A stretch of DNA of 64,000 nt, from positions 31,227-95,226 of the forward strand of contig JBDRVV010000004.1 of NCBI GenBank assembly GCA_039802005.1, given 5' to 3'. The notes below the pieces were generated by a model, which was not told the origin of the DNA, made no database searches, and was given only the letters and a program-made list of their open reading frames with translations. Source of the DNA: a candidate division WOR-3 bacterium. GTDB lineage: Bacteria; Hydrothermota; Tepidihabitantia; SM23-42; JAOAFX01. This document shows positions 1,427 through 54,526 of the stretch, in pieces. A program made the position numbers and the translations under genes. Numbering within the stretch: position 1 is the stretch's first letter; each line of letters starts with the position of its first letter.

Positions 1427-1503
1427 TAAAATTTTAAATTTTTAGGTATTTTGGTATTTCCCAAACTTTAGGCATTTTGGACTTTTAGGTATTTAGGCAT
1501 TTT

Positions 1504-2751: not shown

Positions 2752-2764
2752 TTAATCCTCCCCA

Positions 2765-3040: not shown

Positions 3041-3046
3041 AAATTT

Positions 3047-4747: not shown

Positions 4748-4751
4748 TTAA

Positions 4752-5102
4752 TCAACCTCCTGTTTTTTCTTCAATTATTGCAATTCCACAGGCATATTTT
4801 TTTGAATTGCCTGTTCCAATATGTATATAGTTTTTACTATCAGAAATAAATTTTTTAAGTGGCTCGGTCACATTTACTTGTTTGTTCTTCAATTCTATAT
4901 TTTTAAAAAAGAATCCAAAATATAGCCCGATGCCAAGTGCTTTCAAAATCGCTTCTTTGATGCAAAACTTTAAGCCTGCAAATATACGATTTTTTTGAAT
5001 TGATTCCAATTCGCTGGTTGTAAAAATTTGATTAAAAAAATCTTCAGAAACCTTTGAAAACCGGGTCAATTCAATCAGATCAATGCCAATACCCTTTATC
5101 AT
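4752..5102 (-). CDS. acpS: Holo-[acyl-carrier-protein] synthase (4'-phosphopantetheinyl transferase)
   Basis: 116 aa. It has GIGIDLIEL at the N-terminus and the FCIKEAILKALG core typical of AcpS. Spacing to both neighbours is 4 nt. Confidence 0.8.
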   Translation of the reverse strand: MIKGIGIDLIELTRFSKVSEDFFNQIFTTSELESIQKNRIFAGLKFCIKEAILKALGIGLYFGFFFKNIELKNKQVNVTEPLKKFISDSKNYIHIGTGNSKKYACGIAIIEEKTGG

Positions 5103-5106
5103 TATC

Positions 5107-6144
5107 TCAGGGATATAGTAGTATTTTACCGCAATTCCCGCTTTCCATCAATTCCATTCCTTTCTGAAACTCTTCAAGCCGAAAGCGATGGGTAATTATT
5201 GGTTCAAGATCAATTCTTCCTGAGGCAAGAAATCTCGTTGTTTTATACCAGGTTGAGAACATCAATCTTCCATTTATACCTTGTATCGTGAAGTATTTAA
5301 ATACAATCTCCGCAAGATCTATTTTCAAAGGTTTGTCCGGTATCCCCAAGATTGAAAACTGTCCTCCAGGTCTCAAAGCCTTAAGTCCTTCAGCAATTGC
5401 ACTTTGATTGCCCGACATCTCCAGCACAACATCAACACCTTTGCCATTCGTATTTTGCATAATTGTTTCTATGATCTTGTTCTTCTTTGGGTTCAATACA
5501 AGATCCGCCCCGAGTTTTTTAGCAAGATGCAATCTGTATTCATTTACTTCGGTCGCAATGATTTTAGTGGCACCACAGCTTTTACAAACTGCGATAGACA
5601 TCAACCCAATCGGACCACAACCGGTTATCAAAACAGTATTTCCAGCAATCTCACCGGCAAGAACCGTGTGGATTGCGTTACCTAAAGGTTCCATAACCGA
5701 TATATAATCTTTTGGAATTTTATCCTCAATGACCCAGGCATTGTTTGCAGGAACAACAGCATATTCAGCGAATACCCCGTCTATGTCAACACCAAATATC
5801 TTTACATTCTCACAGATATGGGCAAGACCATTGCGGCATAAAAAACAATATCCACAGGCGATATGGGTTTCGGCAGAAATAATGTCGTCTTTCTTTATAT
5901 TCTGAACATTCGCACCAACCTCAACCACCTGACCGCATAATTCGTGACCCATTATTTGAGGTATCTTCCTTATGCGCTTCTGTGCCCAATCATTCCACTG
6001 GAAAATATGAAGGTCTGTCCCGCAGATTGAAGTTGCTAAAACTTTTACCAGGACCTCGTTGGGTCCTGGTGTTGGGACTGGAACATCTAATAATTCTGCA
6101 CCCGGCTCAGATTTTGTCTTAACGACTGCCTTCATTGTTGTCAT
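5107..6144 (-). CDS. tdh: L-threonine 3-dehydrogenase (zinc-dependent MDR family)
   Basis: It matches Tdh at ortholog level: GHE...G catalytic-zinc motif, the CxxCxxC structural-zinc motif CGYCFLCRNG, and a C-terminus FSTWYKTTRFL...PIITHRF...FQKG...GKILL. The ORF track starts at an upstream TTG at 6150. A sigma-70-like promoter (TTGACT-16-TATAAT) in the 29-nt gap after rny places the transcription start near the first ATG, so the mRNA may be leaderless. The exact start is uncertain. Confidence 0.85.
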   Translation of the reverse strand: MTTMKAVVKTKSEPGAELLDVPVPTPGPNEVLVKVLATSICGTDLHIFQWNDWAQKRIRKIPQIMGHELCGQVVEVGANVQNIKKDDIISAETHIACGYCFLCRNGLAHICENVKIFGVDIDGVFAEYAVVPANNAWVIEDKIPKDYISVMEPLGNAIHTVLAGEIAGNTVLITGCGPIGLMSIAVCKSCGATKIIATEVNEYRLHLAKKLGADLVLNPKKNKIIETIMQNTNGKGVDVVLEMSGNQSAIAEGLKALRPGGQFSILGIPDKPLKIDLAEIVFKYFTIQGINGRLMFSTWYKTTRFLASGRIDLEPIITHRFRLEEFQKGMELMESGNCGKILLYP

Positions 6145-6149
6145 AGACA

Positions 6150-6177
6150 ATTATAATAAAAAAATACCCAAAGTCAA
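6150..6177 (-). promoter_or_regulatory. Sigma-70-type promoter (TTGACT-N16-TATAAT) for the tdh-acpS-ligase-acp-kbl operon
   Basis: Read on the minus strand, the rny-tdh gap is aatcTTGACTttgggtatttttttatTATAATtgtctATG. Confidence 0.5.
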
Positions 6178-7769: not shown

Positions 7770-7940
7770 GGGTAATTTCTTTAAAGTCCCCGCGATTGCC
7801 GTGTGGGAAAAAGTCTCTGAACCCAAGGTTAAAGTGGGCGCCTGTCAACTACAGACAAGTCTGTAGCCAAACTTGGCTCCCTAACGATGGGTGTTGGCTC
7901 AAGACTTAATGCCCATCACGAGCATCGCAGGGAACGAATT
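7770..7940 (-). ncRNA. ssrS: Putative 6S RNA (SsrS)
   Basis: The 205-nt gap downstream of zapA is locally GC-rich and non-coding. On the minus strand the 5' segment ttccctgcgatgctcgtgatggg pairs with the 3' segment cccacacggcaatcgcgggga. A second inner pairing (ttaagtcttgagcc with ggttcagagacttttt) surrounds a central bubble and an apical hairpin (ctacagac-aa-gtctgtag). This matches the 6S closing stem, bubble and terminal stem architecture. The zapA-ssrS order is a widely conserved synteny. Ends are approximate. Confidence 0.5.
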
Positions 7941-12159: not shown

Positions 12160-12284
12160 TTCGTCTTCTCCTTTCTTTTAATATTAAAATGGAGAGCCTG
12201 AAATCTTTAGAATTCAGACTTTACCAGATATTATAACCAAATTAAAATTTCTGTCAAGTGCCGAGTGATTAAAAACGGCACTAA

Positions 12285-14887: not shown

Positions 14888-15017
14888 CGCTCAATTATAA
14901 AGCATTTTTTAATTTTGTCAATGGGCTCAAACACTATTTCTTATTGAATCTTCTAAAAATGGACAATTATTCAACATTTTTCAGCCCGTATTTTAAATGT
15001 TGATTTTTAAAAATATT

Positions 15018-20386: not shown

Positions 20387-23137
20387 CTATTTTACAAGAA
20401 TAAGTTTGTGGGTCGCGACCTTACCTTCTGCTTCAAGTTTCAAGAAGTAAATCCCGTTTGCAAGATTTTTGGTATCCCAAGAGATTTTTCTGGTACCTGC
20501 TAATTCCATGCCATTGACAAGTGTAGTAACAAGTTTGCCGGTTACATCAAAAACTTTAAGAGAAACATTGGTTGTTCTCGTAAGGGTATAAACAATTACT
20601 GCATCCTTTGTTGGATTGGACATATTGGATGCAAAACCAAAGGTTGAATTAATCTTATGTGCATCAGGTTTTTCTGAAATTCCATATACACCCAGATTAA
20701 TTAAACCTTCTGTAGCATTAGTTGCTGTACCACTTGCGGTATTGTAACCACCCGGGCAGAAGAATGTACCACCATTCAAGGTTGGAACATAGACTGCATT
20801 CTGAGCATTAGAAATTGGAGTCGGTTTATTAAGACTCTGATGCCACTGGTTATCTGCTGGGTCATAATACCAGGTATCGTAGGCAGGTACACCGTGGTCA
20901 TCACCACCCGTGAAGTAGAACTTGCCAAGGACACAAGCACCCTGAACCCTTGAGCGGCCAGGTGTGCCTGATGGTCCGGTCGGAATATTAGGACCCTGGG
21001 ACCAGGTGATAGATTGGGGATTGGTTGGGTTAATCACGCCAATGTATAAATTTGTAACATAATCGCCATTATAACCACCCGCAACAAATATAGTATCACC
21101 AGAAATCCCAATTGCGAATGAGCGATTTGTGGTTGGCAGGTTGGTTCCAGTTGTCCAGGTATTATTTGCGGGGTTATAGATATCAACGCTGTTGTAGTAA
21201 GTTGAACCAGATTGACCACCGATTACATATATCAGGGTATCACGCCAGGCAACTGCACCGAGGAAATGTCTACCAACAGGGAGATTTGCTCGGTCAATAA
21301 CAGTTCCAGCAACCGGGTCAAATTCCTGATTGTAGTTCAAGGCATTAAAGCTATCATCACCGCCACCTATGACATAGATCTTACCATCCACAACAGCAGC
21401 TACACATCTCTGGGTTGCGTGATTTAGAACTGTTGATAGTGTTGTCCAGGTTTCATTGGTACAGTTAAACGCATAAATTGCATTGGTTGCAGATCCAGTA
21501 TTCCCACCAAGTGAATAGACTGTTGGTGTACCAGTAACATCAGTATAGACACAGGCATGGTAATAATTAGGTGCAGGCATTGGATTAGAATATATCTTCC
21601 AGAAAGAAGATTGAGTAACTGTGGTTTTTGAAATTGTATCATTGGATGGATTTGCATCACCACCGAGAGCTGTAAAGGCATATACATTATAGGTGATGCC
21701 ATTGTTTGGTCCGGTTGTCCAGGTAGGAAAGGTCAATGTTGTATCTTCACCAGCAGGAAGTGTAACATTTATAAATTGATTATAAATGGTTGTTCCTGAA
21801 GAGTCTATTTTGAAGTAGCAATTAAAGGTTTCATTATTTTGACCAAAATTCTTGTAGGTAGCAACTGGATTGATTGCAGTATTCGGAAATACGGTGGTGC
21901 CAGGTGCAGCGATTGCTATTGTTCCTACATCATGTGGTAAGCTCCCTCTAAGTTCTACATTATCAAATGCCGCATACCACTCCCAATAAGCATTGGTATA
22001 GGCAAAATAAACCCTTATTGATTCAGCACTTGCATATGCCGAGACATCTACTGAGTCCCAGGCTGGCCCTGAACTTGCATTCTGCCAGCTCCGAAGTTCA
22101 ACAGGTGCCTGCCAGGCACCGCCAGTAAATACCCGCACACCAACCGCCAATTTCTCACTATAACCGCCACTATACCAGTAAAAGGAGTAGCCAAACTTCA
22201 ATAAAAACATATTCATTGGAGGTCTAACCGCAGGGGAATAGGCAGTGTCATTGATGGTAACCGTTCCAGCCGCATCACTATCAATCCAGTAAGATGAATC
22301 ACCGGGTGAAGGACAAGCCCAGGATGCGTGGAGTTGTGACCATTGAACATCCCAACCAGCCGGAAATGCTTGACCATTAGTATGAGTCCAGCCTTGATGA
22401 CCGGTCTCAAAATCCCAGATATAACTGACTGGTGCAGAAGTAGTTCCATAAATCTGGAATGAGGATTCGTGCGGATTGCCAAAGACTGTGGTCGCAGGAA
22501 CCCACTGGGGAAAACCAAAGACTGCGCTCTTGAAATACATCTGCTGGCCATCACCCCAGCCAGGATTATTAGCGGGCCAGGAACAATTATTCCCCCATTG
22601 TGGAGGAAAGAGTAGCGTCGGTTCAAATTCAATCCAGTAACGAGTTCCGGGAAAAGCGTGGAATGGTGGAATTTTTGCAGTGTATTGATAATACAGACCT
22701 AAATTCTGCTCGGTGAATGATACGCGCGCAACATAAATAGGGGCCTGCTTTGGTTGGGGACCACTTGCACCCGTGCTATCTTCATATATCTTTATCCAGA
22801 AATCTACAGGGAGAGTAGGTGTACCGTTCCAGTAGCCACCCCACCAGACAAGGGAATCAACATCTGTTTCAAAAGGTACACTGAAATTATCCGCAATCTC
22901 AGCTTCAAAAGGATAGACACTATCCCACTGGCAAGCATCAAAGGTATAATAACCAGTTGCTGCCTGGTCAAACAGTAACTCACTACGGTCACCGAGAATC
23001 GGTTCCTGACTTATACCTACATTGATTGGACTTTTTAATGTAGGCATAGTATTCTGATTTTGTGCATCAGTGTTGTTATCAGCAAAGACAACCAATGCAA
23101 AAATCAGAATCAATGATAAGCCTAATAATTTCTTCAT
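20387..23137 (-). CDS. Large secreted Kelch/beta-propeller repeat protein with a T9SS C-terminal sorting domain
   Basis: 916 aa with a signal peptide. Kelch-like repeats recur (KIYVIGGGDD, LIYVIGGQSG, IFVAGGYNGD). The last ~70 aa, ending ...NGIYFLKLEAEGKVATHKLILVK, form a Por_Secre_tail-type domain. Confidence 0.6.
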   Translation of the reverse strand: MKKLLGLSLILIFALVVFADNNTDAQNQNTMPTLKSPINVGISQEPILGDRSELLFDQAATGYYTFDACQWDSVYPFEAEIADNFSVPFETDVDSLVWWGGYWNGTPTLPVDFWIKIYEDSTGASGPQPKQAPIYVARVSFTEQNLGLYYQYTAKIPPFHAFPGTRYWIEFEPTLLFPPQWGNNCSWPANNPGWGDGQQMYFKSAVFGFPQWVPATTVFGNPHESSFQIYGTTSAPVSYIWDFETGHQGWTHTNGQAFPAGWDVQWSQLHASWACPSPGDSSYWIDSDAAGTVTINDTAYSPAVRPPMNMFLLKFGYSFYWYSGGYSEKLAVGVRVFTGGAWQAPVELRSWQNASSGPAWDSVDVSAYASAESIRVYFAYTNAYWEWYAAFDNVELRGSLPHDVGTIAIAAPGTTVFPNTAINPVATYKNFGQNNETFNCYFKIDSSGTTIYNQFINVTLPAGEDTTLTFPTWTTGPNNGITYNVYAFTALGGDANPSNDTISKTTVTQSSFWKIYSNPMPAPNYYHACVYTDVTGTPTVYSLGGNTGSATNAIYAFNCTNETWTTLSTVLNHATQRCVAAVVDGKIYVIGGGDDSFNALNYNQEFDPVAGTVIDRANLPVGRHFLGAVAWRDTLIYVIGGQSGSTYYNSVDIYNPANNTWTTGTNLPTTNRSFAIGISGDTIFVAGGYNGDYVTNLYIGVINPTNPQSITWSQGPNIPTGPSGTPGRSRVQGACVLGKFYFTGGDDHGVPAYDTWYYDPADNQWHQSLNKPTPISNAQNAVYVPTLNGGTFFCPGGYNTASGTATNATEGLINLGVYGISEKPDAHKINSTFGFASNMSNPTKDAVIVYTLTRTTNVSLKVFDVTGKLVTTLVNGMELAGTRKISWDTKNLANGIYFLKLEAEGKVATHKLILVK

Positions 23138-23554
23138 TTCTTCTCCTTTTTTATTAAGATAATCATTACAAATAAACCAACCTATTTGTAAAAGGTTGGA
23201 TTGACACGGATATGTACTTTAAATAAGTTTTTTTCGTGCAAAATCCGTGTCTACTTGTTTCTGTTTATCACCCCCTTTCTTTGACAAAGGTATTAGAGAT
23301 AGTAGGAATACTATTCAGCAATAGGGATAAACTTTTCTATTGCCCATGTAGTAACCTATCAACTTTTCCCTTTTAATTTCTTAGAATTACCTAATAATCG
23401 TTTGATTGCAATTATTAGCGGTGATATATTATATTCCTTTTTGGCAAAATGTCAATACCCCGATTTGTTATAGTTCAGAACCCCAAATATCTTTCCCAAG
23501 TTATTAAATAAATATGGAAAATTTTTACAATAAATAGTTAAAACTTATTCTGAT

Positions 23555-28883: not shown

Positions 28884-28911
28884 TTGACAAGGTTTTTATG
28901 TTGAATATAAT
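28884..28911 (+). promoter_or_regulatory. Consensus sigma-70 promoter (TTGACA-N16-TATAAT) driving the tRNA-like element and tRNA-Leu
   Basis: TTGACA at 28884-28889 and TATAAT at 28906-28911. The predicted transcription start is about 4 nt before the tRNA-like 5' end at 28922. Confidence 0.6.
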
Positions 28912-28921
28912 AATTATGTTT

Positions 28922-29037
28922 GCCGGGATGATGGAATTGGTAGACGTAGCGGACTTTTGAGAATTCCGCTTCCGTTTAGCGGAATTCGAAATCCCGCATG
29001 CTGTTTGCGGGAAAAATCCTATCGCCGTGAGGCGATA
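28922..29037 (+). pseudogene. Degenerate tRNA-Leu-like element. Its first 35 nt are identical to the downstream tRNA-Leu 5' half. Three stable hairpins follow and there is no acceptor 3' strand
   Basis: 28922-28956 equals 29070-29104 exactly, covering the acceptor 5' strand, D-arm and anticodon stem 5' side. Downstream are hairpins of 10 bp (28961-28987), 6 bp (28993-29011) and 7 bp (29020-29037). A variable-arm-like and a TTCGAAA T-loop-like segment are recognisable. No 3' acceptor complement (TCCCGGC) is present. Confidence 0.35.
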
Positions 29038-29069
29038 AAAAGATTTTAGTATTGATTTATATTATCGTT

Positions 29070-29155
29070 GCCGGGATGATGGAATTGGTAGACGTAGCGG
29101 ACTTAAAATCCGCTTCCCCGCAAGGGGAGTGCCGGTTCAAGTCCGGCTCCCGGCA
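29070..29155 (+). tRNA. tRNA-Leu (anticodon UAA), type II with long variable arm
   Basis: A canonical cloverleaf: 7-bp acceptor stem GCCGGGA/TCCCGGC, D-loop AATTGGTAGA, anticodon loop CTTAAAA, variable arm CCCCGCAAGGGGAG and T-arm GCCGGTTCAAGTCCGGC. CCA is not encoded. Confidence 0.85.
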
Positions 29156-29232
29156 TTGTCGTAGTATAAATGCCAACCCCGCCACTTTGTGCGTCGGATT
29201 AAACTTTGGATTTTGACATTTGAAATTTTGAA

Positions 29233-30585
29233 TTACAATAGACCTTTCTGCCTATATCTTGCAATTCTATTCAGGAGTGTCTTATATGATACCCTCAGTC
29301 TCCTTGCCGTCTCTGCTTTATTCCACTCTGTTTGCTCAAGAGTCTTTTTGATAAGTTCTGCCTCAGCCATTTCTCTGCCATAATTTGCTGCGGTCTTTAA
29401 ATCCATATTTCCCACTAAAACTTCCGCTCTCTTTTTTGTCTGTAATGGCAACAGGATGTGTTCAGAATTTATAGTTTCTCCAGCCAGTATATTTGCCCGC
29501 TCAATGGTATTCTCCAGTTCACGCACATTTCCGGGCCAATCATAATTAATTAATTTTTGAAGGGCAGATTCCGAAATCTTCTTATTTGATTTTATTTTTT
29601 TTAAAAAATGTTCAACAAGCAAAGGAATGTCTTCTTTTCTGTCTCTCAATGGTGGAATTATTATTGGGAAAACACTTAATCTGTAATAAAGGTCTTCCCG
29701 AAATCTTCTTTCATTAACGAGGGTATGTAAATCCTTATTGCTTGCCGCAATTATGCGGACATCAACTTTTATTGAAGCAGTTCCACCCAGACGTTCAAAT
29801 GTTTTTTCCTGAATGACCCTCAATATTTTTGCCTGCAGATCAATACCCAGATCTCCAATCTCATCAAGAAATATTGTGCCTTTATGAGCAAGTTCAAATT
29901 TTCCAATCTTCCGTGCCACCGCACCGGTAAACGCGCCTTTTTCTGAGCCGAATAATTCATTTTCCAACAATTCACTTGGTATCGCTGCACAATTTATGGT
30001 TACAAACGGAGCCTCCTTTCGGGGCGATAGACTATGACAGGCCCTTGCAAATAGTTCTTTTCCAGTCCCTGATTCACCAAGAAAAAGCACAGTTGCTTCA
30101 GTTGGTGCAACTTTTTTGAGTAACTCAATTGATTTTTTTATCACTTCACTCACACCTACAATTTCAGGGAAACCATGGATATTTTGGACCATCTCTTTGA
30201 GCAGAATGTTTTCATATTGGGCTCTTTGCTCCCCAATGATCTTTTTGACTAAAATAATAAGTTGCTCTGTATCAAATGGTTTGGTAAGAAAATCACAGGC
30301 ACCCATTTTCATTGCTTCAACCGCTCTCTCCACTGTACCAAATGCCGTCATTATAATAAATTTTGCCTCTGAATCAATGTTTTTCAATTCACGGAGGACA
30401 TCAATACCATCAATGTCGGGAAGACGTAAATCCAACAATACAAGATTTATCTTTTCTCTCTTAAAAATCTGAATAGCCTCACGCCCATTTCGGGCAATTA
30501 AGGTTGAGAAACCTGCATCATCAAGTGCCACCTTCAATATCTCAGCAAAACTTGTTTTATCCTCAACGATTAGTATATCTGCCAT
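29233..30585 (-). CDS. Sigma-54-dependent response regulator (NtrC family: REC, AAA+ and Fis-type HTH domains)
   Basis: 450 aa with receiver aspartate context LVLLDLRLPD, Walker A GESGTGKE, the GAFTGA motif as written in the sequence, and a C-terminal HTH. Confidence 0.9.
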   Translation of the reverse strand: MADILIVEDKTSFAEILKVALDDAGFSTLIARNGREAIQIFKREKINLVLLDLRLPDIDGIDVLRELKNIDSEAKFIIMTAFGTVERAVEAMKMGACDFLTKPFDTEQLIILVKKIIGEQRAQYENILLKEMVQNIHGFPEIVGVSEVIKKSIELLKKVAPTEATVLFLGESGTGKELFARACHSLSPRKEAPFVTINCAAIPSELLENELFGSEKGAFTGAVARKIGKFELAHKGTIFLDEIGDLGIDLQAKILRVIQEKTFERLGGTASIKVDVRIIAASNKDLHTLVNERRFREDLYYRLSVFPIIIPPLRDRKEDIPLLVEHFLKKIKSNKKISESALQKLINYDWPGNVRELENTIERANILAGETINSEHILLPLQTKKRAEVLVGNMDLKTAANYGREMAEAELIKKTLEQTEWNKAETARRLRVSYKTLLNRIARYRQKGLL

Positions 30586-32180
30586 TAGATTTTAAAATTC
30601 TGTATTACCTTTGCGAGCCTTTCAGTAATATTTAGCAATTCCTGGCTTGTGGCAGCAAATTCCTCAGTTGCTGCTGATTGTTCCTCAAGCGAAGCAAGGA
30701 TTTGCTCTGCCGCAGTAGAATTATCCTTTGAAATATTAAATGAGTCCTCTATTTGTTTCAACATTGCAGTAATTTCTTCTTCTTCTTTGGAAATAACATT
30801 TTTGATATTTTTTATTGCCCCATTCAATTCAATAACCGCATTTGATATTGTGCGTAATGATTCGGTTGTGGATTTAACAACCTGATTTCCATCATATATT
30901 GCCTTTCTTACTTCTTCGGAGCTTTCCGCTACACTTTTTATTGAATCAATCATTTCTTTTACTATTTCCCCGATCTCCATCGCTGAGTTCTGGGTATTAT
31001 CTGCAAGTTTCTTTATTTCATCAGCAACAATGGCAAAACCCTTTCCGAACTCACCCGCACGAGCAGCCTCAATGGAGGCATTGAGGGAGAGAATATTTAT
31101 CTTTTCTGATATTTTATTGATAGTCTCTATTATTTTCGTAATTGTATTTGATACATCATGTAATTTTGCCATCAATCCAATAAGATATTCATACCTGGTT
31201 CCTATAATCTCTATATTTTTTAATGCCATATCACTCATCTGTAATCCATTATTTGCACTTGCTGAAAAATTCTCAGCGTGAGTCTCAACTTTTTTTATGT
31301 TATCAACAACTGAAAAACTTATTTCACTTAAAGACTTACCCATAGAAATTGATTTATCAAGTTCCTGAAACTGGCGGTCAACGCCTTCGGTCATCTTCTG
31401 GGTTGTAGATACAATCTCTGAAATTGCCGTTGACAACTCATTTGATGTTGATGCAATCTGTGCGCTGATTTCGCTCAATTGTTTAGATGTATCAACGACC
31501 AGTTTTATTATATTTGCCTCGGTCTCAACGAGAGTCTTAATAGTTCTGCCTAAAAAATAAATTTCGTCCGGTGCTCCCTTTTCTTCAATATGTACATGCA
31601 AATCTCCCTTCTCCACTTTTTTCAAAACTTCTTGCAGTTCTTTAAGGCGCACAAGGTCACGGTCAAAGTCTACAATGAGTAAGAAAGAAACAAATGTTAA
31701 GAAAATTAGTTTAACTAATTCCATCCCCAAATTTATTTCCGGGTATAAGTTCTGAGTCAAAACCAACATTAAAACATAAGCAAAGTCTACAAGGGCAATG
31801 GCGTAAATTCCATTTTTTATCCCGAGCAGGTAGCCCGGATGCAAGATGATATAGAAATATATCAAAAAGAACGGAATTCTTAATTGAGGTTGAATAAATG
31901 ATAGACAAAATGTTAAAATTGTTGCAGTCACGGTAGTTATGATATAAGGAATTACAGGCGAATAGATATTTTTGGTTGACAGTATGTAAATGACCAGCCC
32001 GAAAATAAAGACAATTGCGGTAAGAACAGGTATAAAGATTGGAACTGGAAAGAACTTTAAAATTGCACCGAATAAAAATACCACCTCAAACAACAGGCAG
32101 AATAGCATAGTTGCCATACTGCCTTTTTTGGCAAAATTTAAACCTTTCAACCTCATATCTTCGTTGGTATTCATTATCAC
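30585..32180 (-). CDS. Methyl-accepting chemotaxis protein with a polytopic (about 6-7 TM) N-terminal sensor region
   Basis: 531 aa. The highly conserved MCP signalling-domain core [33 protein letters not shown] is present. The N-terminal 200 aa are hydrophobic multi-TM. The stop overlaps the response-regulator start. Confidence 0.8.
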
Positions 32181-33424
32181 CTCCTGAAAATTTCCTGGGT
32201 TTTCTTCATCGCACAGAACTCACCACACATAGTGCAGGTGAGTGCGGAATGAGAACGTTTACGTAAAAATATTTTCTTCGCCCTTACGGGATCAATCAAA
32301 AGGTTGATCATTTTTTTCCAGTCAAGAGAGAATCTTGCTTTAGACAAATTAAGGTCACGCATCTTTGCCCCAACCAAGCCTTTACCAATATCTGCAGCGT
32401 GGGCAGCAATTTTTAAGGCAATAACACCTTCACGCACATCTTCCACGCTTGGCAAACCGAGGTGTTCAGCAGGAGTAACATAGCATAAAAAATCCGCCCC
32501 ATAATAAGCAGCAAGGGCACCTCCGATTGCAGCAACGATATGGTCATAGCCTGCTCCAATATCTGTCACCAACGGACCAAGCACATAAAATGGTGCACCA
32601 TCACATATTGTTTTTTGTAATTTGATATTTGCCTCTATCTCATTTATTGGAATATGTCCCGGCCCTTCCACAATTACCGAAACATCATTCATTCTTGCTT
32701 CTTTTACTAAATCACCAATTATCACAAGTTCTCTTATCTGATATTCATCTGTAGCATCACTAATCGCACCAGGTCTCAAACCATCGCCAAGACTAAGTGT
32801 TGCTGTGTATTTCTTTGCTAACTTGAGCAGACGATCGTAATATTCATAGAGAGGATTTTCTTTATTATTTGCCTTCATCCATTCAATCATCATTGAACCA
32901 CCACGACTCACCACACCACAGACTCTTCTCTTTTTTTCCATTCCCCTTATTGCTTCCCTGGTGATACCACAATGGACCGTAATAAAATCAACGCCATCTT
33001 CAAGATGTCTTTCTATTGTTTCAAATATTTCATCAACACTCGCCTTTGTAAAAGGCTTTTTCTTCTTGCGCATATCAATCGCCACTTGATATATCGGTAC
33101 CGTCCCCACTGCCACACTTGATGCATTCAAAATCTCTCTTCTGATTCTATTAATATCTCCACCCGTTGACAAATCCATCACCGCGTCAGCACCACTCTCA
33201 ATAGCAACCTTTAATTTTTTCAACTCATATTTTAAGTTTGCAAAATCAGGCGATGTTCCTATATTGGCATTTATCTTCGTCCGACATCCCTTTCCTAATA
33301 TGAGGGGTTTTATTTTATGAAGGCGACTTTTTATTAAAACCGCGGTTCCGTTTTTTAAATTTTTTTTCAATGTCTCGGTGCTTATCCCTTCTTCTTTTGC
33401 CAGTTTACCAATCAAATCATTCAT
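32177..33424 (-). CDS. thiC: ThiC-family radical SAM enzyme (phosphomethylpyrimidine synthase, or a BzaA/BzaB-like paralog)
   Basis: 415 aa with [17 protein letters not shown] and VGTVPIYQ motifs and a C-terminal [11 protein letters not shown] cluster. This is the short anaerobe-type form. Confidence 0.75.
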
Positions 33425-33666
33425 TTTGCATACTCCACATTAACACCAAGGGAGGTCTTAGGAACTGCATATGCAACAAATTTTAATATAAAATTCATTG
33501 CCTTTTCTTCATTTGGTGCTTCAAATATTAAAACATAATCCGGTTTGCCAAAAAGTGATAAAAATTCTCTAATCTTTATTTCTTCGGGAACTTTTAAAGT
33601 CTTGACTGCATTGAGCAATTCATCAGCACGACCTGGAATAACATCAAGCGTAGTGATAAAAGTCAT
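33421..33666 (-). CDS. GYD-domain protein
   Basis: 81 aa with a GYD-family-like core (GKPDYVLIFEAPNEE). It overlaps the ThiC-family gene start by 4 nt. Confidence 0.4.
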   Translation of the reverse strand: MTFITTLDVIPGRADELLNAVKTLKVPEEIKIREFLSLFGKPDYVLIFEAPNEEKAMNFILKFVAYAVPKTSLGVNVEYAK

Positions 33667-33686
33667 TCTGCCTCCTCATAAATTAT

Positions 33687-33714
33687 ATTATATGCTAAAA
33701 TGTAAAGCTGTCAA
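33687..33714 (-). promoter_or_regulatory. Consensus sigma-70 promoter (TTGACA-N16-TATAAT) for GYD-thiC-MCP-RR, lying inside the 3' end/gap of the upstream GNAT gene
   Basis: The minus-strand read is TTGACAgctttacattttagcaTATAATataatttatgaGGAGGcagaATG. The leader is under about 20 nt. Confidence 0.55.
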
Positions 33715-33728
33715 GAAATAGGTGGATT

Positions 33729-34844
33729 CTATAAAGTGCCTTGATATATTCTATATTTTTTATATAACCTACCACCCATTTTTAAAATTGTATTATTTAC
33801 TGGGTAATTATCCTCAAGGGTCCAGCTCAATTCTCCACTATTGTATCCGAGTTTCATTCCGGCCTTCAAAGTTTCAAGGACCATCAATCCTTCAAGGCCC
33901 AATTTTTGATAATCTTTTTTAACCCCCATTATCATCAATCGAGCCTCCTTAATTTTATTTTTGTAATAGAGAAATTTTATCATTCCAAGGAGGTCTAATT
34001 TACCATTTAGTTTTTTTAGAATAAAGTTATAATTTGGTACAGTTAGAGAAACACCGACCGGAACATTATCAATTTCAACAATTATAACCAATTCGGGGAC
34101 AATGAGATCTTTAAGAGTCTTGGCAATATGAGAGAATTCGGAATCAGTCATTGGTACAAAACCCCAGTTTCTGCTCCAGGCGTCGTTATAGATTTCTTTA
34201 ATCTTTTTCACTTCGTTTGAGAAGTCATCAATATCAACCGGTCTTACCTTTAAATCTCTCACCCTTTTACGAATAAGCGAGCACATTTTTTCTAATCTCT
34301 CAAATGGTGCATTTTTTGCTTCAATATAAAAAGCATATAAATCCTTTGCCTTTGTTAGTCCTGCGGCTTGGGCGAGTTCATGGTAATATTCAAATGTATA
34401 TGTCATCATAATCATCGGCTCTAAGAAATAGCCTTCAAGGAGAAATCCCACCTCTTCATTGGTCGAAGGATTGAATGGACCAACAAATTTAGTCATTCCT
34501 TTTTCTTTATGAAATTCGCGCACGGCATTGAATAATGCCACCGCCGACTCTACATCATCTTCGCACTCAAAGAATCCAAAATATCCAGTCTTCTCATTCC
34601 AGAATTCAATAAAATTGTAATCAACTATTGCACAAACCCTACCAACAACTTCCTTATCGCGATAAACAAGAAACATCTCTCTTTCTGCATGCTCCCAGAA
34701 TGGATAATTTTTCTTATCAAACATATTGTAGACATCTTTTTTTAAAGGTGGAACCCAGTAACGGTTATTTTTGTATAAACGATACGGCAACTCTACAAAA
34801 GACTTTAATTCCTTTTCATCTTTGACCGGAACTACTTTTATCAC
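33729..34844 (-). CDS. Long (371 aa) GNAT-superfamily N-acyltransferase-like protein; candidate bacterial ceramide synthase or N-acyl amino acid synthase
   Basis: 371 aa with no signal peptide. The GNAT assignment rests on length and context; no motif was checked. It overlaps by 4 nt the upstream Spt-like gene. Confidence 0.4.
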   Translation of the reverse strand: MIKVVPVKDEKELKSFVELPYRLYKNNRYWVPPLKKDVYNMFDKKNYPFWEHAEREMFLVYRDKEVVGRVCAIVDYNFIEFWNEKTGYFGFFECEDDVESAVALFNAVREFHKEKGMTKFVGPFNPSTNEEVGFLLEGYFLEPMIMMTYTFEYYHELAQAAGLTKAKDLYAFYIEAKNAPFERLEKMCSLIRKRVRDLKVRPVDIDDFSNEVKKIKEIYNDAWSRNWGFVPMTDSEFSHIAKTLKDLIVPELVIIVEIDNVPVGVSLTVPNYNFILKKLNGKLDLLGMIKFLYYKNKIKEARLMIMGVKKDYQKLGLEGLMVLETLKAGMKLGYNSGELSWTLEDNYPVNNTILKMGGRLYKKYRIYQGTL

Positions 34845-36028
34845 TTTACCAGACCAAATTCTTTAGCGCACCGTCTAAATACATCAAGCACGATATTTAT
34901 ATCTTCGTCTGTATGCGTAGCCATATAACTTGTTCTGATAAGTGCCCTGCCCGGTGGTGTGGCAGGAGAAATAACTGGATTGGCAAATACACCATTTTCA
35001 AAAAGGCTTTTCCAGAAGGCAAAACATTTTTCATCTTCACCGATAATCACGGGGATAACCGGGGTTATGCTCTCACCTGTATCAAGCCCGATATCTTTAA
35101 ATCCCTTTCTCACTCTTTCTGTTACTTCCCAGAGTCTTTTCCGGCGTTCTGGTTCAGTCTTTATTATCTCCAGAGATTTTAACGCACTGGCAACTGATGC
35201 CGGGGTCATACTTGCCGAAAATATGAGTGCGCGGGCAGTATGTCTAATGTGGGTTATCACATCCTTTTCCGCTACGACGAAACCACCAAGTGATGCGAAT
35301 GATTTACTGAATGTACCCATGATTATATCAACTTCATTTAATAAATTGAAGTGTTCACATACACCACGCCCGTGCTCTCCCATCACACCAATGCCATGAG
35401 CATCATCTACAAGCAGCCTCGTGTTAAATTTTTTCTTCAGTTTTACAATCTCCGGTAGATTTATTACATCGCCCTCCATACTGAAAACTCCATCTACCAC
35501 AATCAATTTTCCTTTATTATGGGGTATTGATTTCAATATTCTTTCCAGGTCATTCATATCATTATGTTTAAATTTTTTGACCTCAGCGAATGAAAGTCTA
35601 CAACCATCTATGATGGATGCGTGGTCCTGCCTATCTATGATAATAACATCGTCTTTACCCGCAATCGCAGATATTATTCCGAGGTTAGTTTGAAATCCGG
35701 TTGAAAATACAATTCCATCATCTTTTTCAAAAAAATCGGCGAGCTCTTTTTCAAGTCTGATATGAATATCAAGTGTCCCGTTTAAAAATCTTGAACCAGA
35801 ACAGGTCGAACCATATTTTTGAACCGCTTCAATTGCAGCTCTTTTCAATCTTTCATCTGCAGCAAGTCCAAGATATCCATTGGAACCTATCATAATATAT
35901 TCCCTGCCGTTAATCATTACTCTATGGTCCTGTGCTGATTCAATTGGTGTAAAATAAGGATAAATATTTATACTCTTGGCACGATTTACTGCTTCAACGG
36001 TGGCTTTGCATTTTTTAAATATATCCAT
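34841..36028 (-). CDS. Serine palmitoyltransferase-like alpha-oxoamine synthase (PLP-dependent)
   Basis: 395 aa. The motifs are IGSNGYLGL, GSRFLNGTLD, DGVFSMEGD, DDAHGIG and the PLP-lysine motif GTFSKSFASLGG. The TFSKS form is characteristic of Spt rather than BioF or Kbl. Confidence 0.6.
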   Translation of the reverse strand: MDIFKKCKATVEAVNRAKSINIYPYFTPIESAQDHRVMINGREYIMIGSNGYLGLAADERLKRAAIEAVQKYGSTCSGSRFLNGTLDIHIRLEKELADFFEKDDGIVFSTGFQTNLGIISAIAGKDDVIIIDRQDHASIIDGCRLSFAEVKKFKHNDMNDLERILKSIPHNKGKLIVVDGVFSMEGDVINLPEIVKLKKKFNTRLLVDDAHGIGVMGEHGRGVCEHFNLLNEVDIIMGTFSKSFASLGGFVVAEKDVITHIRHTARALIFSASMTPASVASALKSLEIIKTEPERRKRLWEVTERVRKGFKDIGLDTGESITPVIPVIIGEDEKCFAFWKSLFENGVFANPVISPATPPGRALIRTSYMATHTDEDINIVLDVFRRCAKEFGLVK

Positions 36029-36064
36029 TTTTTTATTATAATGAATTTCTCACTAAAGTCAATA

Positions 36065-37333
36065 TCATAAAATGTTTCGCAAAAACCACTTCAGTTCAAA
36101 GATTTTTTCAATGTCCTTTGCATTCAGGAATTTTCTTGTCTCACAATCTTCCTCAACAATCTTCTTTAAATGCCTTTTTTCTTCCATTGACCTGAACGAA
36201 AGTTTCTGAACCAGATCATACGCTGTCTTTCTATTCATCCCTTTCTCAATCAATCTATTCATCAAATTCTGTGATGCATAAAGCCCAAGACTGTTATTGA
36301 TATTCTCCATCATCCGTTCAGGATAGACCCTTAAATTTTCTAAGACCCATATAATTTTTTTGGTTATATAATGAACAATATGAAATGCATCAGGAATGAT
36401 AACCCTTTCTACCGAAGAATTGGTCAAATCCCTTTCATGCCAGAGATTGATGTTTTCAAACGCTGGTATCAAATAACCCCTGAGGACCTTTACAAGACCA
36501 CATACCCTCTCACAGGTAATTGGATTTTGTTTATGAGGCATTGCTGATGAACCCTTTTGACCTTTCGTAAATGGCTCAGCCACTTCACCAATTTCAGAGC
36601 GTGAAAGATTTCTTATCTCGGTGGCTATTCTCTCAATGGCACAACCATATAGCACAAGGGCGGTTAGCAGAAAGGCATGCCGGTCTCGTGGTATTACCTG
36701 AGTTGAGACCGGTTCCGGCACCAAGTCTAATTTTTTCATAACCTTCTTTTCAATGTCCGGTGGAATAATTGTATAACTACCAACAGCACCTGATAATTTA
36801 CCGAATGCGATTTCTTTTTTTGCCTGACATAACCGCTCTCTTGCCCTCAATACTTCCTGATACCAGGAATTTATTTTATAACCAAATGTGATAGGTTGAG
36901 CGTATATCCCATGGGTTCTCCCAATTTGCGGTGTCTTATGATATTTAACTTCAAGCCTTTTCAAATTTTTTAATAGTTTATCTATATCCTTCAGTACAAT
37001 GTTAAGCCCATCTTTCAATATCAAACCCCAGGCGGTATCAACGAGGTCATAAGAAGTCATACCAAAATGGAGCCATCTTCCCTCTTCTTTACCAATCTTT
37101 TCTCTCACTGCCTCAAGGAATGCAATAACATCGTGGTTTGTTATCTTCTCTATCTCTTCTACCCGCTCAGGGTCAATCTTTATCCTCTCTAATTTTTTAC
37201 CCAATCCCCTTGGAATTATTCTGAGTTCTTCCTGGACCTCTGCGACTGCCTTCTCAACAAGTACCCATACTTCCATTTTATGTTCTTCACTGAATATCTT
37301 TCTTATCTCTTCTGTTTCATATCTTTTTATCAT
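36065..37333 (-). CDS. purB: Adenylosuccinate lyase
   Basis: 422 aa of the fumarase/aspartase family with PurB-like termini. Confidence 0.85.
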   Translation of the reverse strand: MIKRYETEEIRKIFSEEHKMEVWVLVEKAVAEVQEELRIIPRGLGKKLERIKIDPERVEEIEKITNHDVIAFLEAVREKIGKEEGRWLHFGMTSYDLVDTAWGLILKDGLNIVLKDIDKLLKNLKRLEVKYHKTPQIGRTHGIYAQPITFGYKINSWYQEVLRARERLCQAKKEIAFGKLSGAVGSYTIIPPDIEKKVMKKLDLVPEPVSTQVIPRDRHAFLLTALVLYGCAIERIATEIRNLSRSEIGEVAEPFTKGQKGSSAMPHKQNPITCERVCGLVKVLRGYLIPAFENINLWHERDLTNSSVERVIIPDAFHIVHYITKKIIWVLENLRVYPERMMENINNSLGLYASQNLMNRLIEKGMNRKTAYDLVQKLSFRSMEEKRHLKKIVEEDCETRKFLNAKDIEKIFELKWFLRNIL

Positions 37334-37394: not shown

Positions 37395-38603
37395 CTAATT
37401 GACAAAAATTATCTTTAAATTCTTTAGTTCATTTTCATTCTGTATATGACAGAAATAAATCCCATTTGGCAGGAGAGTATTCGCTTCATCCCTGCCATCC
37501 CAGGCTACAACATATTCTCCAGAGATTTTGAATTCATGCATCAGCCTCCTCACCAGTCTGCCCGATTCATCGTAGATATTTATCTTTACTATTCCGGGTT
37601 TAGATACATAGTAATTGATATTGACTGATTTGTTGAACGGATTCGGCTGAAGGATAAAATTTTTTGTCGCATCCTTGCCTGCTCGGTCAAATTTTTGGTA
37701 TATTGGAATTAAATGGACAGGTTCACCGGGTTTTAAACAGGCAATTGTGCGATTCGGAATTTCAACCCATCTCTGGCTTGATGTATCAAGTGGTTGGGAA
37801 GCAACGACCCAGAAATTGGAAACCAGGGAATCAGGATAATAGTAAACGGTTATTGCCCTTGGTTCTGATTTTGTAAAATTTAATGCCCATAACTTATTAC
37901 CGTCAGACATCACAAAGTTCAATTGCGCATTACTCGTTCCAAGCGCAGAATCGAGTTTAATAACTGCCATCTTAATACATTCCTCAATTGAAAGATCAGG
38001 GTTCATATCTAAAACTTCAATCATTAGTATGGCGAACAAATCAGAATCAAGATAGTTTGGAGCATAATCAGGAGGATTTTGCTCAAGATATAGAGGATTG
38101 ATTGAAGAAATCAATCTTAGTAAAATGTCCGTATTAATTGTACCATTATGGGCAAAGAGTATATCAAAATTTCTTTTAATACATTGTCTCCGAAAAGGAT
38201 GAGGATCAGGAATGCCACCCGTTGGTCCGCTGGAACTCTTACGCACATGGGCAACTGCAGAATTTTTAACATTTCTGAGTAATTCCTTGGTCATTTCTGA
38301 ATATCTGGGGTCAAGTGGTGCAGATGGCTCTCCACGACGGATAACTGGTAAGATTGTATCGCTTTGGGATTCAATAAAATAAGCAATACCCCAACCATCA
38401 GGATTTTTTGCTCCGAGTTTGCGTAAAGAATCAAGGTGGGTTGTGATAATATCACTAATTGCTGGCGTGTTTTCAGACAATATAATACCCCAGAACCTGC
38501 ACTCATGATTTTGTTCCAAATTTTTCCGGCAGGAAATAGTAAAGGATAAAATGATAAATAGAAAAGTAAAATATGGAATATCCTTATTTTTGCATTGGCC
38601 CAT
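37395..38603 (-). CDS. Secreted class-II (Ntn) glutamine amidotransferase-like protein with lipoprotein-type signal and T9SS C-terminal sorting domain
   Basis: 402 aa. A signal peptide and a lipobox-like FTISC precede an Ntn nucleophile context CRFWGII...DGWGIAYF (GATase_6/EgtC-like). The C-terminus ...PNGIYFCHIQNENELKNLKIIFVN is a T9SS sorting domain. Confidence 0.5.
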   Translation of the reverse strand: MGQCKNKDIPYFTFLFIILSFTISCRKNLEQNHECRFWGIILSENTPAISDIITTHLDSLRKLGAKNPDGWGIAYFIESQSDTILPVIRRGEPSAPLDPRYSEMTKELLRNVKNSAVAHVRKSSSGPTGGIPDPHPFRRQCIKRNFDILFAHNGTINTDILLRLISSINPLYLEQNPPDYAPNYLDSDLFAILMIEVLDMNPDLSIEECIKMAVIKLDSALGTSNAQLNFVMSDGNKLWALNFTKSEPRAITVYYYPDSLVSNFWVVASQPLDTSSQRWVEIPNRTIACLKPGEPVHLIPIYQKFDRAGKDATKNFILQPNPFNKSVNINYYVSKPGIVKINIYDESGRLVRRLMHEFKISGEYVVAWDGRDEANTLLPNGIYFCHIQNENELKNLKIIFVN

Positions 38604-38802
38604 ATTTGAATTATATTGATAGAAGATTTGATGTCAACAAAGTAAAATTTCTAAACAAAAATTTGCTATTGGTTAATGGGCATGACTGCCGGTATGGTCT
38701 TTGGACATTGTCATCTGCGTTAAAATTAAAATTTGGCTATTGTTTGGAGTTTGGTGCTTGGGGTTTGGAATTTAACAATTTTTTGGGGCTTGGTTGATTT
38801 GC

Positions 38803-40218: not shown

Positions 40219-40296
40219 ACCATTTATATTTTATTAATTGCCAATTGTTTGTCAATTTCCCCCTTGACAGGTTTCAGTTTTTGATTATAATAGGTT

Positions 40297-53419: not shown

Positions 53420-54526
53420 ATGGAGCTTAAAACTTTACTTGAAAAAATGATGAAAGTAAATGCCTCAGACCTTCACCTTAAGGCTGGGGCACCCCCGGTT
53501 TTTAGAATTGATGGTAGACTTGTGATAGAAAAGTCTGAGTCTTTAACTCCGGAAGTTCTAAAGACAATGGCATATCAGATAATGACCCCTTCCCAGCAAC
53601 AGACCTTTGAAAGAATGAAAGAGATGGATTTTGCAATTGGGGTTCGTGGTGTAGGGCGCTTTCGTGTCAATATATTCTTACAGCGTGGTAGCATTGCGAT
53701 TGCAATGCGGGCGATACCGATGTCGGTAAAAAGGATCGATGAATTAAATCTACCACCAATCCTAAAAGAAATTTCTCTAAAACCCAGGGGGTTGATTCTT
53801 GTCACCGGGACAACCGGCAGTGGCAAATCAACAACCCTCGCGGCAATGATAGAACACATAAACGAAAATATATCAAAACACATCATAACAATTGAAGACC
53901 CGATTGAATATCTATTCCGCGATAATCTTTCAGTGATCAATCAGCGTGAAGTTTTGATGGATACCATATCATTTTCTATTGCACTTCGCCATATCTTGCG
54001 TCAGGATCCTGATGTTATATTAATCGGGGAAATCAGAGACCGAGAAACTATGGATGTGGCACTGAAGGCTGCGGATACCGGACATCTGGTTATGTCTACA
54101 CTCCACACATTGAATGCAACCGAAACAATCAACCGTATCATATCGTTTTATCCACCACACCAGCATCAGCACATAAGAGTTTTACTTGCTGCCACCCTTG
54201 TTGGAGTAGTATCTTTGAGGCTATTACCGAGGGCGGATGGTAAAGGGAGAATTCCTGCCGTTGAAATTCTTGTGGCGACACCAACCATTAAAGAATATCT
54301 ACTCGATCCAGTAAAAACATTATTGATACAGTCGGTGATTGAAGAAGGCTATGGACAATACGGTATGCAGACATTTGATCAATCTATATTCCGCCTCTAC
54401 AAGGATGGACTGATATCTTATGATGATGCAATTCAAGCAGTCTCCAACCCCGATGAATTCAAACTGAGGCTTGTTGGTATTGAAGCCACTGCAGAACGTG
54501 GCTGGGGTTCTTTTGAGAAAAAGTAG
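53420..54526 (+). CDS. pilT: Type IV pilus retraction ATPase PilT
   Basis: 368 aa with Walker [10 protein letters not shown], an Asp box, His box and the PilT-specific AIRNLIRE-like region ([17 protein letters not shown]). Confidence 0.85.

Follow-up and report, generated by a model that had tools for sequence, protein, structure and literature searches.

Why a gene for the thiamine enzyme ThiC should stand in a WOR-3 bacterium with no TPP riboswitch before it, a gene for a small protein overlapping its start and genes for a chemoreceptor and a response regulator behind it, is the question raised by this locus. The original prediction reported four packed genes, and in the 64,000-nucleotide stretch of DNA analyzed here (the window) all four minus-strand ORFs were recovered, with agreeing domain content. 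In order of transcription these are an 81-aa GYD-like gene (33421..33666), called from its ORF and a weak Pfam GYD match; a gene for a 415-aa short-form HMP-P synthase of the radical SAM type (ThiC, 32177..33424), which passes the NCBIfam cut-offs; a chemoreceptor (MCP) gene (30585..32174), detected by Pfam PF00015 and PF00672; and an NtrC-type response regulator (RR) gene (29233..30585) with Pfam REC, sigma-54 AAA+ and HTH_8 domains. A candidate intrinsic terminator of the operon, taken from a consensus scan, is located on the same strand at 29017..29040, beyond a convergent tRNA-Leu gene. All three junctions had been described as overlaps, and this stands for GYD/thiC (4 nt, ATGA) and MCP/RR (1 nt, TAATG), but not for thiC/MCP. 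The MCP start is most likely the ATG at 32174 and not the GTG at 32180, because this ATG is preceded at 5 nt by AGGAGG, and 529 aa is the length of the closest orthologs. This ATG is 2 nt past the thiC stop, so that thiC and the MCP gene are tightly coupled without overlapping. From the promoter prediction we infer that the four genes share one transcript.

The operon promoter, TTGACA-N16-TATAAT (33687..33714, minus strand), matches the sigma-70 consensus at 12 of 12 positions, with the -35 hexamer TTGACA at 33714-33709, a spacer of 16 and the -10 hexamer TATAAT at 33692-33687. Between it and the GYD ATG at 33666, a short leader with a GAGGAGG Shine-Dalgarno can be read from the minus strand at 33667..33686. 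The predicted consensus promoter with a leader under 20 nt is thus borne out; the leader is ~15 nt, and there is therefore no room in it for an aptamer. Perfect TTGACA and TATAAT hexamers occur at the same place 5' of the GYD gene in 11/11 WOR-3 loci, spaced by 16 (17 in L008), although the upstream flanks differ among these loci. No second promoter matching at 11/12 or better was found ahead of the cluster genes, or between any two of them, in the 11 loci scanned; L006 and L009 have an additional 11/12 match within the RR coding sequence. One strong housekeeping-type promoter thus appears to drive the operon. Eight perfect consensus promoters are present in the 64-kb window, several of them just 5-6 nt from a start codon, and by this measure short-leader consensus promoters are the norm of the genome.

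The claim that the TPP riboswitch is missing was confirmed, with none detected by Rfam at the gathering threshold in the whole window. Nor was one found further upstream, in a long 5' UTR reaching over the GNAT gene, when Rfam was run at E<=10 on 33300-36300, a region that takes in the leader and the GNAT and SPT genes. The TPP riboswitch (RF00059) was also not found in related loci L001-L010 or in L081, L084 and L088; in a positive control, Rfam detected it in 5/5 loci from other phyla. What does not hold is the premise that this riboswitch almost universally precedes thiC, as it fails in the window ThiC's own clade: 40 of the 68 evaluable nearest relatives are without one, an absence that was Rfam-confirmed for 20 of the 40. 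A ThiD2+TMP-TENI fusion gene located ~5 kb upstream of the cluster in sister loci L081 and L084 likewise has no TPP riboswitch; no further thi gene was found in the 64-kb window by Pfam searches of ORFs of at least 150 aa and gap ORFs. Since the thiamine genes of the clade lack riboswitch control, the operon is probably transcribed constitutively. For thiamine biology this mainly corrects an assumption, as short-form thiC occurs without a TPP riboswitch in many uncultured anaerobic lineages.

The original prediction allowed that the ThiC homolog might be a paralog with another role, for example in benzimidazole synthesis of the BzaA/BzaB type. In the broader form considered here, the paralog would be of the BzaA, BzaB or BzaF type, or otherwise neofunctionalized, and yield a benzimidazole or another product; the missing riboswitch speaks for this. 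The clade-specific change Q249S, at a column otherwise at least 97% conserved, could be counted on the same side. However, the window protein passes both ThiC equivalog models, scoring 589.5 bits against NF009895 (cut-off 410) and 547.8 bits against TIGR00190 (cut-off 460), and misses the cut-off of 700 for the BzaB model TIGR04386 by 197 bits (502.7 bits). Its model-score profile matches those of riboswitch-controlled ThiCs, and its ThiC-minus-BzaB margin (+87 bits) is above theirs (+31 to +45). The protein keeps 108 of the 110 columns conserved among 69 other ThiCs; the residues E253, C314, D214 and H257/H321, the last two of which we take to be the metal-binding histidines, are invariant in 11/11 WOR-3 ThiC sequences, as is CTMCGEFC. 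The three C-terminal Fe-S cysteines are spaced CX2CX3C and not CX2CX4C, as is usual in the short clade (79/80 loci). Catalytic roles have been assigned to E413 and C474 of CcThiC and to D383 of AtThiC, and BzaF has Asn at the position of D383, a discriminator between ThiC and BzaF (PMC12661338). The window ThiC retains both the catalytic Glu and the catalytic Cys, and in place of the BzaF Asn it has Asp214, an Asp shared by all 80 aligned sequences. A cobalamin riboswitch or a cob-operon context is typical of bza genes. Rfam found no cobalamin riboswitch in the window and Pfam scans found no cob genes among the neighbors, whereas a ThiD2-ThiE consumer of the ThiC product is encoded nearby in sister genomes. 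The benzimidazole or neofunctionalized paralog is accordingly considered highly improbable. Judged by its sequence the window protein is an orthodox ThiC, which would turn AIR into the thiamine pyrimidine HMP-P, its normal job; HMP-P would in turn feed the ThiD2-ThiE fusion enzyme.

The 81-aa protein scores 23.8 bits (E 4.7e-5) against Pfam GYD (PF08734), under the cut-off of 31.4. Weak GYD matches are precomputed on many of its orthologs, and some sources call these orthologs GYD-domain proteins. Homologs fall into 185 clusters; the best 120 of the 185 are all at least 64% identical, and those of the 120 that are labeled with a taxon all belong to WOR-3. The AF2 model (pLDDT 92.7) predicts a beta-alpha-beta-beta-alpha-beta, ferredoxin-like fold, which among solved structures comes nearest, at weak E-values, to muconolactone-isomerase-like proteins and to RAM modules of the stand-alone kind. 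The family profile retrieved only noise from PDB sequences (E>0.08), and the literature on GYD/COG4274 yielded nothing informative. The idea that this protein replaces in trans the N-terminal domain of long ThiC is unsupported, as no ThiC chain is among the fold matches. Most likely the translationally coupled protein would serve as a ThiC accessory or as a small-ligand-binding partner.

The chemoreceptor consists of a membrane sensor (~aa 19-177), a HAMP domain (178-229; PF00672, 36.8 bits) and a long methylatable signaling hairpin (230-531; PF00015, 119.6 bits) of about 43 heptads by our own count. Of the 6-7 transmembrane helices originally proposed, six are supported and a seventh is not. 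The hairpin has the canonical conserved tip (11 residues) and two methylation sites of the form [ASTG]2-x2-[EQ]2-x2-[ASTG]2, and from these motifs the protein looks like a conventional, methylatable receptor coupled to CheA/CheW. The 6TM sensor has no Pfam match at E<=10. A word-indexed search with the 6TM domain alone returned two matches and was too insensitive, and an exhaustive HMMER search was used instead; exhaustive phmmer recovered only five representatives, one confirmed in a WOR-3 cluster, two from a distant high-GC lineage and two fragments. Members of the MCP ortholog group turned up almost exclusively in WOR-3. The AF2 model of the sensor superposes on modules of the adenylyl-cyclase/ImcA type, with six short predicted TM helices and minimal loops.

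In the RR, the phospho-acceptor pocket and the GAFTGA motif are intact, and D52, T80, K102, Walker A and GAFTGA are conserved in ten aligned WOR-3-clade sequences; the protein reaches no NCBIfam equivalog cut-off. No convincing -24/-12 sigma-54 site was found in the window or in related loci, which contain only scattered sites with two mismatches. The one sigma-54-like match that recurs proved to be a false lead, as it sits inside the tRNA-Leu gene. Pfam searches of ORFs of at least 150 aa and gap ORFs in the 64-kb window bear out the statement that neither a histidine kinase nor CheA is encoded there, and the same searches found no CheW, CheR, CheB or rpoN. No kinase, CheA or CheW gene lies within 10 kb of the cluster in any locus. 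The literature on WOR-3 chemotaxis yielded nothing informative.

The four-gene cluster is complete in 17 of the 18 WOR-3/Stahlbacteria loci recovered, with varying flanks; the incomplete locus, L007, has GYD-thiC-RR without the MCP gene. Identities across the cluster loci are 70-93% for ThiC, 48-92% for the MCP and 64-93% for the GYD-like protein. A metagenome scan with the 6TM alignment gave at least five true loci, every one with the full cluster. This conserved cluster and its promoter in WOR-3/Stahlbacteria are new, as are a small protein and a 6TM sensor detected almost exclusively in that lineage. Conservation in one clade could, however, reflect inheritance and not selection. The cluster would then have been kept by descent, with ThiC and the GYD-like protein unrelated to the MCP and RR, the latter two perhaps unrelated to each other, and the signaling genes riding a strong constitutive promoter. 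Consistent with this, the association is seen in a single clade, and at 70 thiC loci examined in other phyla no GYD-like, MCP or NtrC-type gene adjoins thiC. L007 manages without the MCP, distant homologs of the 6TM-MCP lack both neighbors, with thiC missing at L087 and the RR at L089, and the sigma-54 scan of the window and related loci found no regulatory site connecting the parts. Against it, gene order and tight spacing persist even where MCP identity falls to 48% and the flanks on both sides have changed, the promoter is exactly in place in 11/11 loci and, within the clade, the MCP ortholog group is found only in the cluster context. We regard simple descent as a possible but less probable explanation than a lineage-specific four-gene operon comprising a normal ThiC, its small partner and a sensory output pair, which we consider reasonably probable.

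In this lineage-specific operon the MCP and RR would form the output pair. The receptor, presumably dimeric, may respond through a compact hexahelical domain, modeled as adenylyl-cyclase/ImcA-type, to a partner protein or to a cue that is lipophilic or sits in the membrane. By analogy with Myxococcus Che3-CrdA, it would tune the activity of a CheA-type kinase whose gene would lie elsewhere, and this kinase would set the phosphorylation state of the RR, a putative phosphorylation-dependent sigma-54 activator. The sensory circuit first proposed is a possibility that gains support from the conserved adjacency of MCP and RR and from the retention of the whole operon in 17/18 loci. Control of the regulator by the receptor is hypothetical and would follow the Che3 analogy; on the other side stand L007, which lacks the receptor, the distant sensor homologs without either neighbor and the conventional, CheA/CheW-coupled look of the MCP. 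Any functional link of the sensor pair with thiamine synthesis is likewise hypothetical, and their coupling can be put forward only conditionally. One form of it is a metabolic-sensory unit in place of the riboswitch, in which HMP, thiamine, AIR or a by-product of the thiamine pathway would be sensed by the 6TM receptor and/or the GYD-like protein, the RR would adjust genes for salvage, transport or related functions and ThiC activity would be tuned post-translationally by the small protein. In the clade both thiC and thiD2-thiE are without a TPP riboswitch, and some other control is therefore expected; the strict co-conservation and translational coupling of the cluster and the RAM-like, ligand-binding fold predicted for the small protein point the same way. 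The co-conservation with thiC may equally be a historical accident, and we hold this unit to be unlikely. Similarly speculative is a protein-based circuit tying thiamine-pyrimidine synthesis to sensing, in which the orphan, adenylyl-cyclase-type 6TM receptor and/or the RAM-like protein would detect HMP, thiamine or a related membrane-permeant cue and the sigma-54 activator would relay it, possibly without a dedicated CheA. Were this circuit real, vitamin B1 metabolism would be regulated in a new way, and there would be a natural example of a "cyclase-type" 6TM receptor whose ligand could be assigned. As the cluster is strictly co-conserved with thiC, a concrete, testable guess at the cue can be made, namely the pathway metabolites. 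For signal transduction, this family, detected almost exclusively in one lineage, joins a hexahelical cyclase-type module to an MCP hairpin beside a sigma-54 activator, and is a possible handle on what 6TM modules sense.

Each part of the operon can be set against a known system. The window ThiC shares its core motifs, catalytic residues and Fe-S cysteines with known short-form ThiC (NF009895/TIGR00190; 3EPM, 4S27), but its gene lacks a TPP riboswitch and stands between a GYD-like gene on its 5' side, to which it is translationally coupled, and signaling genes on its 3' side. The small protein has the ~80 aa size and the predicted fold of the GYD family (PF08734/COG4274) and of stand-alone RAM modules (such as STS042, 2ZBC); it differs from the GYD family in falling below the Pfam gathering score, and constitutes a distinct subfamily, detected almost exclusively in WOR-3 and always adjoining thiC. 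Hexahelical receptor modules are known from class III adenylyl cyclases, the diguanylate cyclase ImcA and CqsS-type quorum sensors (PMC4821796, PMC10904736). The modeled sensor, with its six short TM helices, is superposable on those of AC9, AC5, Rv1625c, ImcA and CqsS-type sensors, but shares just 8-11% sequence identity with its fold matches and no detectable sequence homology; its output is a HAMP domain and MCP hairpin, in contrast to the cyclase or kinase outputs of these proteins. As in Myxococcus xanthus Che3-CrdA, a methyl-accepting receptor gene lies beside a gene for a REC-AAA+-HTH sigma-54 activator, and this arrangement hints at chemosensory signaling that steers transcription rather than motility. 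The Che3 cluster encodes CheA, CheW, CheB and CheR, and its output, the NtrC-like CrdA, has a dedicated kinase, CrdS (PMC3147164). Of these components the MCP and RR alone are present at the WOR-3 loci, with no CheA, CheW, CheB, CheR or CrdS-like kinase gene within 10 kb of the pair; the WOR-3 pair further differs in standing within a thiC operon and in having a receptor whose sensor, a 6TM module, is unrelated.

The four genes of the cluster, identified from open reading frames and Pfam matches, lie on the minus strand of the window, which derives from a MAG of candidate division WOR-3, and encode an 81-aa GYD-like protein (33421-33666; 100% identical to NCBI ABIL69_02325), a 415-aa ThiC homologue (32177-33424), a chemoreceptor (MCP) and a 450-aa NtrC-type response regulator (RR, 29233-30585). 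The original prediction that successive genes overlap holds at two junctions: the GYD stop and thiC start have ATGA in common, and a single base of TAATG belongs to both the MCP stop and the RR start. It probably does not hold at the thiC/MCP junction. The longest MCP ORF spans 30585-32180, but the most likely start is ATG 32174, because AGGAGG is located 5 nt upstream of it, within the final thiC codons, and the closest MCP orthologues are 529 aa; this start leaves a 2-nt gap after the thiC stop. A consensus promoter (33687-33714, minus strand) matches at 12 of 12 positions, with TTGACA at 33714-33709, a 16-nt spacer and TATAAT at 33692-33687, and is followed by GAGGAGG and then the GYD-like start codon, ATG 33666. 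The leader of ~15 nt agrees with the predicted length of less than 20 nt. Eight perfect TTGACA-N16-TATAAT promoters were found in the 64-kb window versus 0.08 expected, five on the minus strand (12230-12257, 14894-14921, 23428-23455, 33687-33714 and 38610-38637) and three on the plus strand (28884-28911, 40264-40291 and 58912-58939). Three of these (ahead of thrS at 14887, TetR at 40297 and the gene at 38603) leave only 5-6 nt before the start codon, suggesting that the host organism commonly makes mRNAs with no leader or almost none. The short leader of the operon is a habit of this genome and hence unremarkable.

Each of the 11 loci examined has a perfect TTGACA/TATAAT promoter 20-25 nt ahead of the GYD start, with a spacer of 16 nt except in the WOR-3 locus L008, where it is 17 nt. 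No second match of at least 11/12 was detected ahead of the cluster or between its genes in these 11 loci; L006 and L009 carry an additional 11/12 match within the RR coding sequence. The larger intergenic gaps of a few loci contain GC-rich hairpin inserts and no promoters. Comparison across loci thus gives good support to the prediction of a single transcription unit. The GC-rich palindromic inserts (e.g., ccctctcaccttgggggagaggg), found at the MCP-RR or thiC-MCP junctions of some loci (L006, 10853-10968; L009, 10853-10976; L010, 9240-9304), resemble REP or MITE-like elements, or else hairpins of an attenuator.

In the genome scan, the ten WOR-3/Stahlbacteria loci all keep the order and orientation GYD-thiC-MCP-RR except for L007, a GYD-thiC-RR arrangement with a 7-nt junction and the MCP missing. 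The complete cluster is also present in two further contexts (L084 and L088) and in all five metagenome loci that were found by the sensor domain alone, and overall in 17 of 18 loci, with identities to the window as low as 70% for ThiC, 48% for MCP, 64% for the GYD-like protein and 63% for RR. The upstream flank is PurB-SPT-GNAT in some loci versus ThiD2-ThiE/HPF/HPr-kinase/EIIA/acyl-ligase in others, and the downstream flank is likewise variable. In the 70 loci from other phyla, thiC is never accompanied by an adjacent GYD-like, MCP or NtrC-type gene. Linkage of the cluster genes appears clade-specific and not obligatory, because two distant high-GC homologues of the receptor stand alone: L087 has no thiC within 211 nt upstream, and in L089 the next gene downstream is ftsX, not a regulator gene. 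Pure hitch-hiking of genes without functional relation, against which the retention of the cluster between changing flanks speaks, is an appreciable but less likely alternative.

Upstream neighbours of the cluster in other WOR-3 genomes include ThiD2-ThiE, a hibernation factor (S30AE), HPr kinase and EIIA(Man) (L081, 4899-7659; L084, 4578-7414; L088, 898-1290). This set recalls the hpf and ptsN genes that accompany rpoN in Proteobacteria; no rpoN was seen in these loci. Lipid-type genes are located in the window at 296-6150 and 33729-36028 (both minus strand), the set comprising a DAO oxidoreductase, a class I/II aminotransferase, an ACP (2765-3040), an acyl-AMP ligase, a phosphopantetheinyl transferase and a Zn-ADH. 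A serine-palmitoyltransferase-like gene (NF047600, 560 bits vs a cut-off of 640) adjoins a 371-aa GNAT-like protein; these genes may point to a WOR-3 pathway for sphingolipid-like or N-acyl lipids.

As predicted, no TPP riboswitch precedes the operon: Rfam at gathering thresholds returned only one 6S RNA (7783-7936, minus strand, 73 bits) and one tRNA across the whole window. A more distant aptamer overlapping the GNAT gene had been considered, but is excluded by Rfam searches of 33300-36300 at E<=10, which returned nothing relevant. The premise that this riboswitch almost universally precedes thiC is contradicted by related loci. A genome scan by ThiC sequence yielded 80 loci, 70 of them from other phyla, of which 68 could be evaluated for a THI-box pattern within 1.5 kb upstream of thiC; the pattern is present in 28 and lacking in 40. 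All five pattern-positive loci tested were confirmed by Rfam (72-79 bits, directly upstream of thiC), and 20 pattern-negative loci, from Ignavibacteria, Zixibacteria, Elusimicrobia, Omnitrophota, Thermoplasmata and other groups, yielded no TPP riboswitch at any position. Short-form thiC without a riboswitch is therefore common among the nearest relatives of the window ThiC; the features first noticed are real, but the missing riboswitch was over-weighted.

By sequence, the window protein appears to be an orthodox ThiC. It matches ThiC_Rad_SAM (599 bits) and scores above both of the NCBIfam equivalog cut-offs for ThiC (589.5 > 410; 547.8 > 460). ThiCs located immediately downstream of TPP riboswitches (L012, L020 and L056) have the same score profile and lie nearer the BzaB model, with ThiC-versus-BzaB margins of +31 to +45 bits versus +87 for the window protein. 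The CX2CX3C spacing, found in 79 of 80 loci, is the norm of the short ThiC clade. The catalytic Glu (E253), essential Cys (C314), two invariant His and three cluster Cys are retained in WOR-3 ThiC, and of 110 alignment columns at least 97% conserved in 69 other ThiCs, this clade alters two (Q249S and the conservative D329E). Residue 249 (32678-32680), four residues ahead of the catalytic Glu on the same strand, is a clade-specific Ser (Lys in one locus) and Gln in 67 of the 69 other ThiCs. AtThiC D383 is among the few active-site differences from BzaF, which has Asn there (PMC12661338, a 2025 mechanistic paper); alignments to 3EPM and 4S25 map it to window D214, which is Asp in 11 of 11 WOR-3 sequences. 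The suggestion of a BzaA/BzaB-type paralog was rejected on the Asp at D214, the kept catalytic residues and a score 197 bits under the BzaB cut-off, and a Bza-like or neofunctionalised enzyme is very improbable. Sister genomes carry a ThiD2-ThiE fusion gene ~5 kb upstream of the cluster, so an HMP-P consumer exists; a TPP riboswitch was looked for at this fusion gene and none was found.

The 81-aa protein matches Pfam GYD at 23.8 bits, under the 31.4 cut-off. Its relatives form 185 clusters; among the 120 listed, identity is at least 64% and every cluster with a taxon name is WOR-3, consistent with a tight subfamily. The predicted structure (pLDDT 92.7) is a beta-alpha-beta-beta-alpha-beta ferredoxin-like domain, whose nearest solved folds, at weak E-values, are muconolactone-isomerase-type proteins, a stand-alone RAM module (2ZBC) and Lrp/AsnC RAM domains. 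At most, the model would fit an accessory protein that binds a small ligand or oligomerises.

The receptor contains HAMP and MCPsignal domains. The 6-7 membrane helices described at first are corrected to six: the N-terminal 180 residues comprise six short helices with minimal loops. TM4 is aromatic, proline-rich and highly conserved (R101-x-P-F-F-x-I-Y-F-Y-I-x3-P). Searches with the 6TM part gave no Pfam hit at E<=10 and, out of 1.84 billion proteins, just five representatives at 50% identity. For the full-length receptor, scores fall abruptly from 347 bits in the orthologue group (~57 clusters) to 138 bits in MCPs of the generic Firmicute type. The sensor appears from modelling to be an orphan cyclase-type 6TM module. 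Such modules have been put forward as lipophilic-ligand receptors and can be exchanged for the quorum sensor CqsS, which has been fused to the Rv1625c cyclase (PMC4821796); in ImcA, a partner sensor docks on the module (PMC10904736). The cytoplasmic part looks conventional, with HAMP, ~43 heptads, a canonical hairpin tip and two methylation-consensus sites.

RR comprises Response_reg, Sigma54_activat and HTH_8 domains and reaches no named NCBIfam equivalog cut-off. It is probably a phosphorylation-dependent sigma-54 activator, because the phospho-acceptor pocket (D52, T80, K102), Walker A, GAFTGA and HTH_8 are intact in ten aligned WOR-3-clade sequences. The reported lack of a histidine kinase or CheA was borne out: neither these nor CheW, CheR, CheB or rpoN were found in the 64-kb window or, in sister loci, at distances up to 10 kb. 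A scan of the window and related loci for -24/-12 promoters gave no credible site; the one recurrent match was rejected as it lies inside the convergent tRNA-Leu gene. A degenerate tRNA-like copy (28915-29005, plus strand), uncalled by ARAGORN or Rfam, is located upstream of tRNA-Leu(TAA) (29069-29156) and directly 3' of a consensus promoter; it has roughly the first 36 nt of the adjacent tRNA-Leu in common, and could represent either a duplicate in decay or a leader element. Por_Secre_tail (T9SS) sorting domains in two proteins, one a 916-aa Kelch-repeat protein, and a PilT-like ATPase (20387-23137 and 37395-38603, minus strand; 53420-54526, plus strand) hint at functions in type IX secretion and type IV pili, which a chemosensory system could serve.

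That the receptor and activator are coupled to thiamine status, in a genuine thiamine-linked sensory circuit, is unlikely. We consider it fairly probable that a normal ThiC and its putative clade-specific small partner are transcribed constitutively from the strong promoter, on a transcript that would also carry the receptor and the sigma-54 activator, these two probably cooperating through a kinase encoded elsewhere. New here is a conserved, clade-specific putative operon with an apparently orphan cyclase-type 6TM chemoreceptor. The closest precedent for a receptor paired with a sigma-54 activator is the Myxococcus Che3 pathway, the output of which is the NtrC-like CrdA (PMC3147164).
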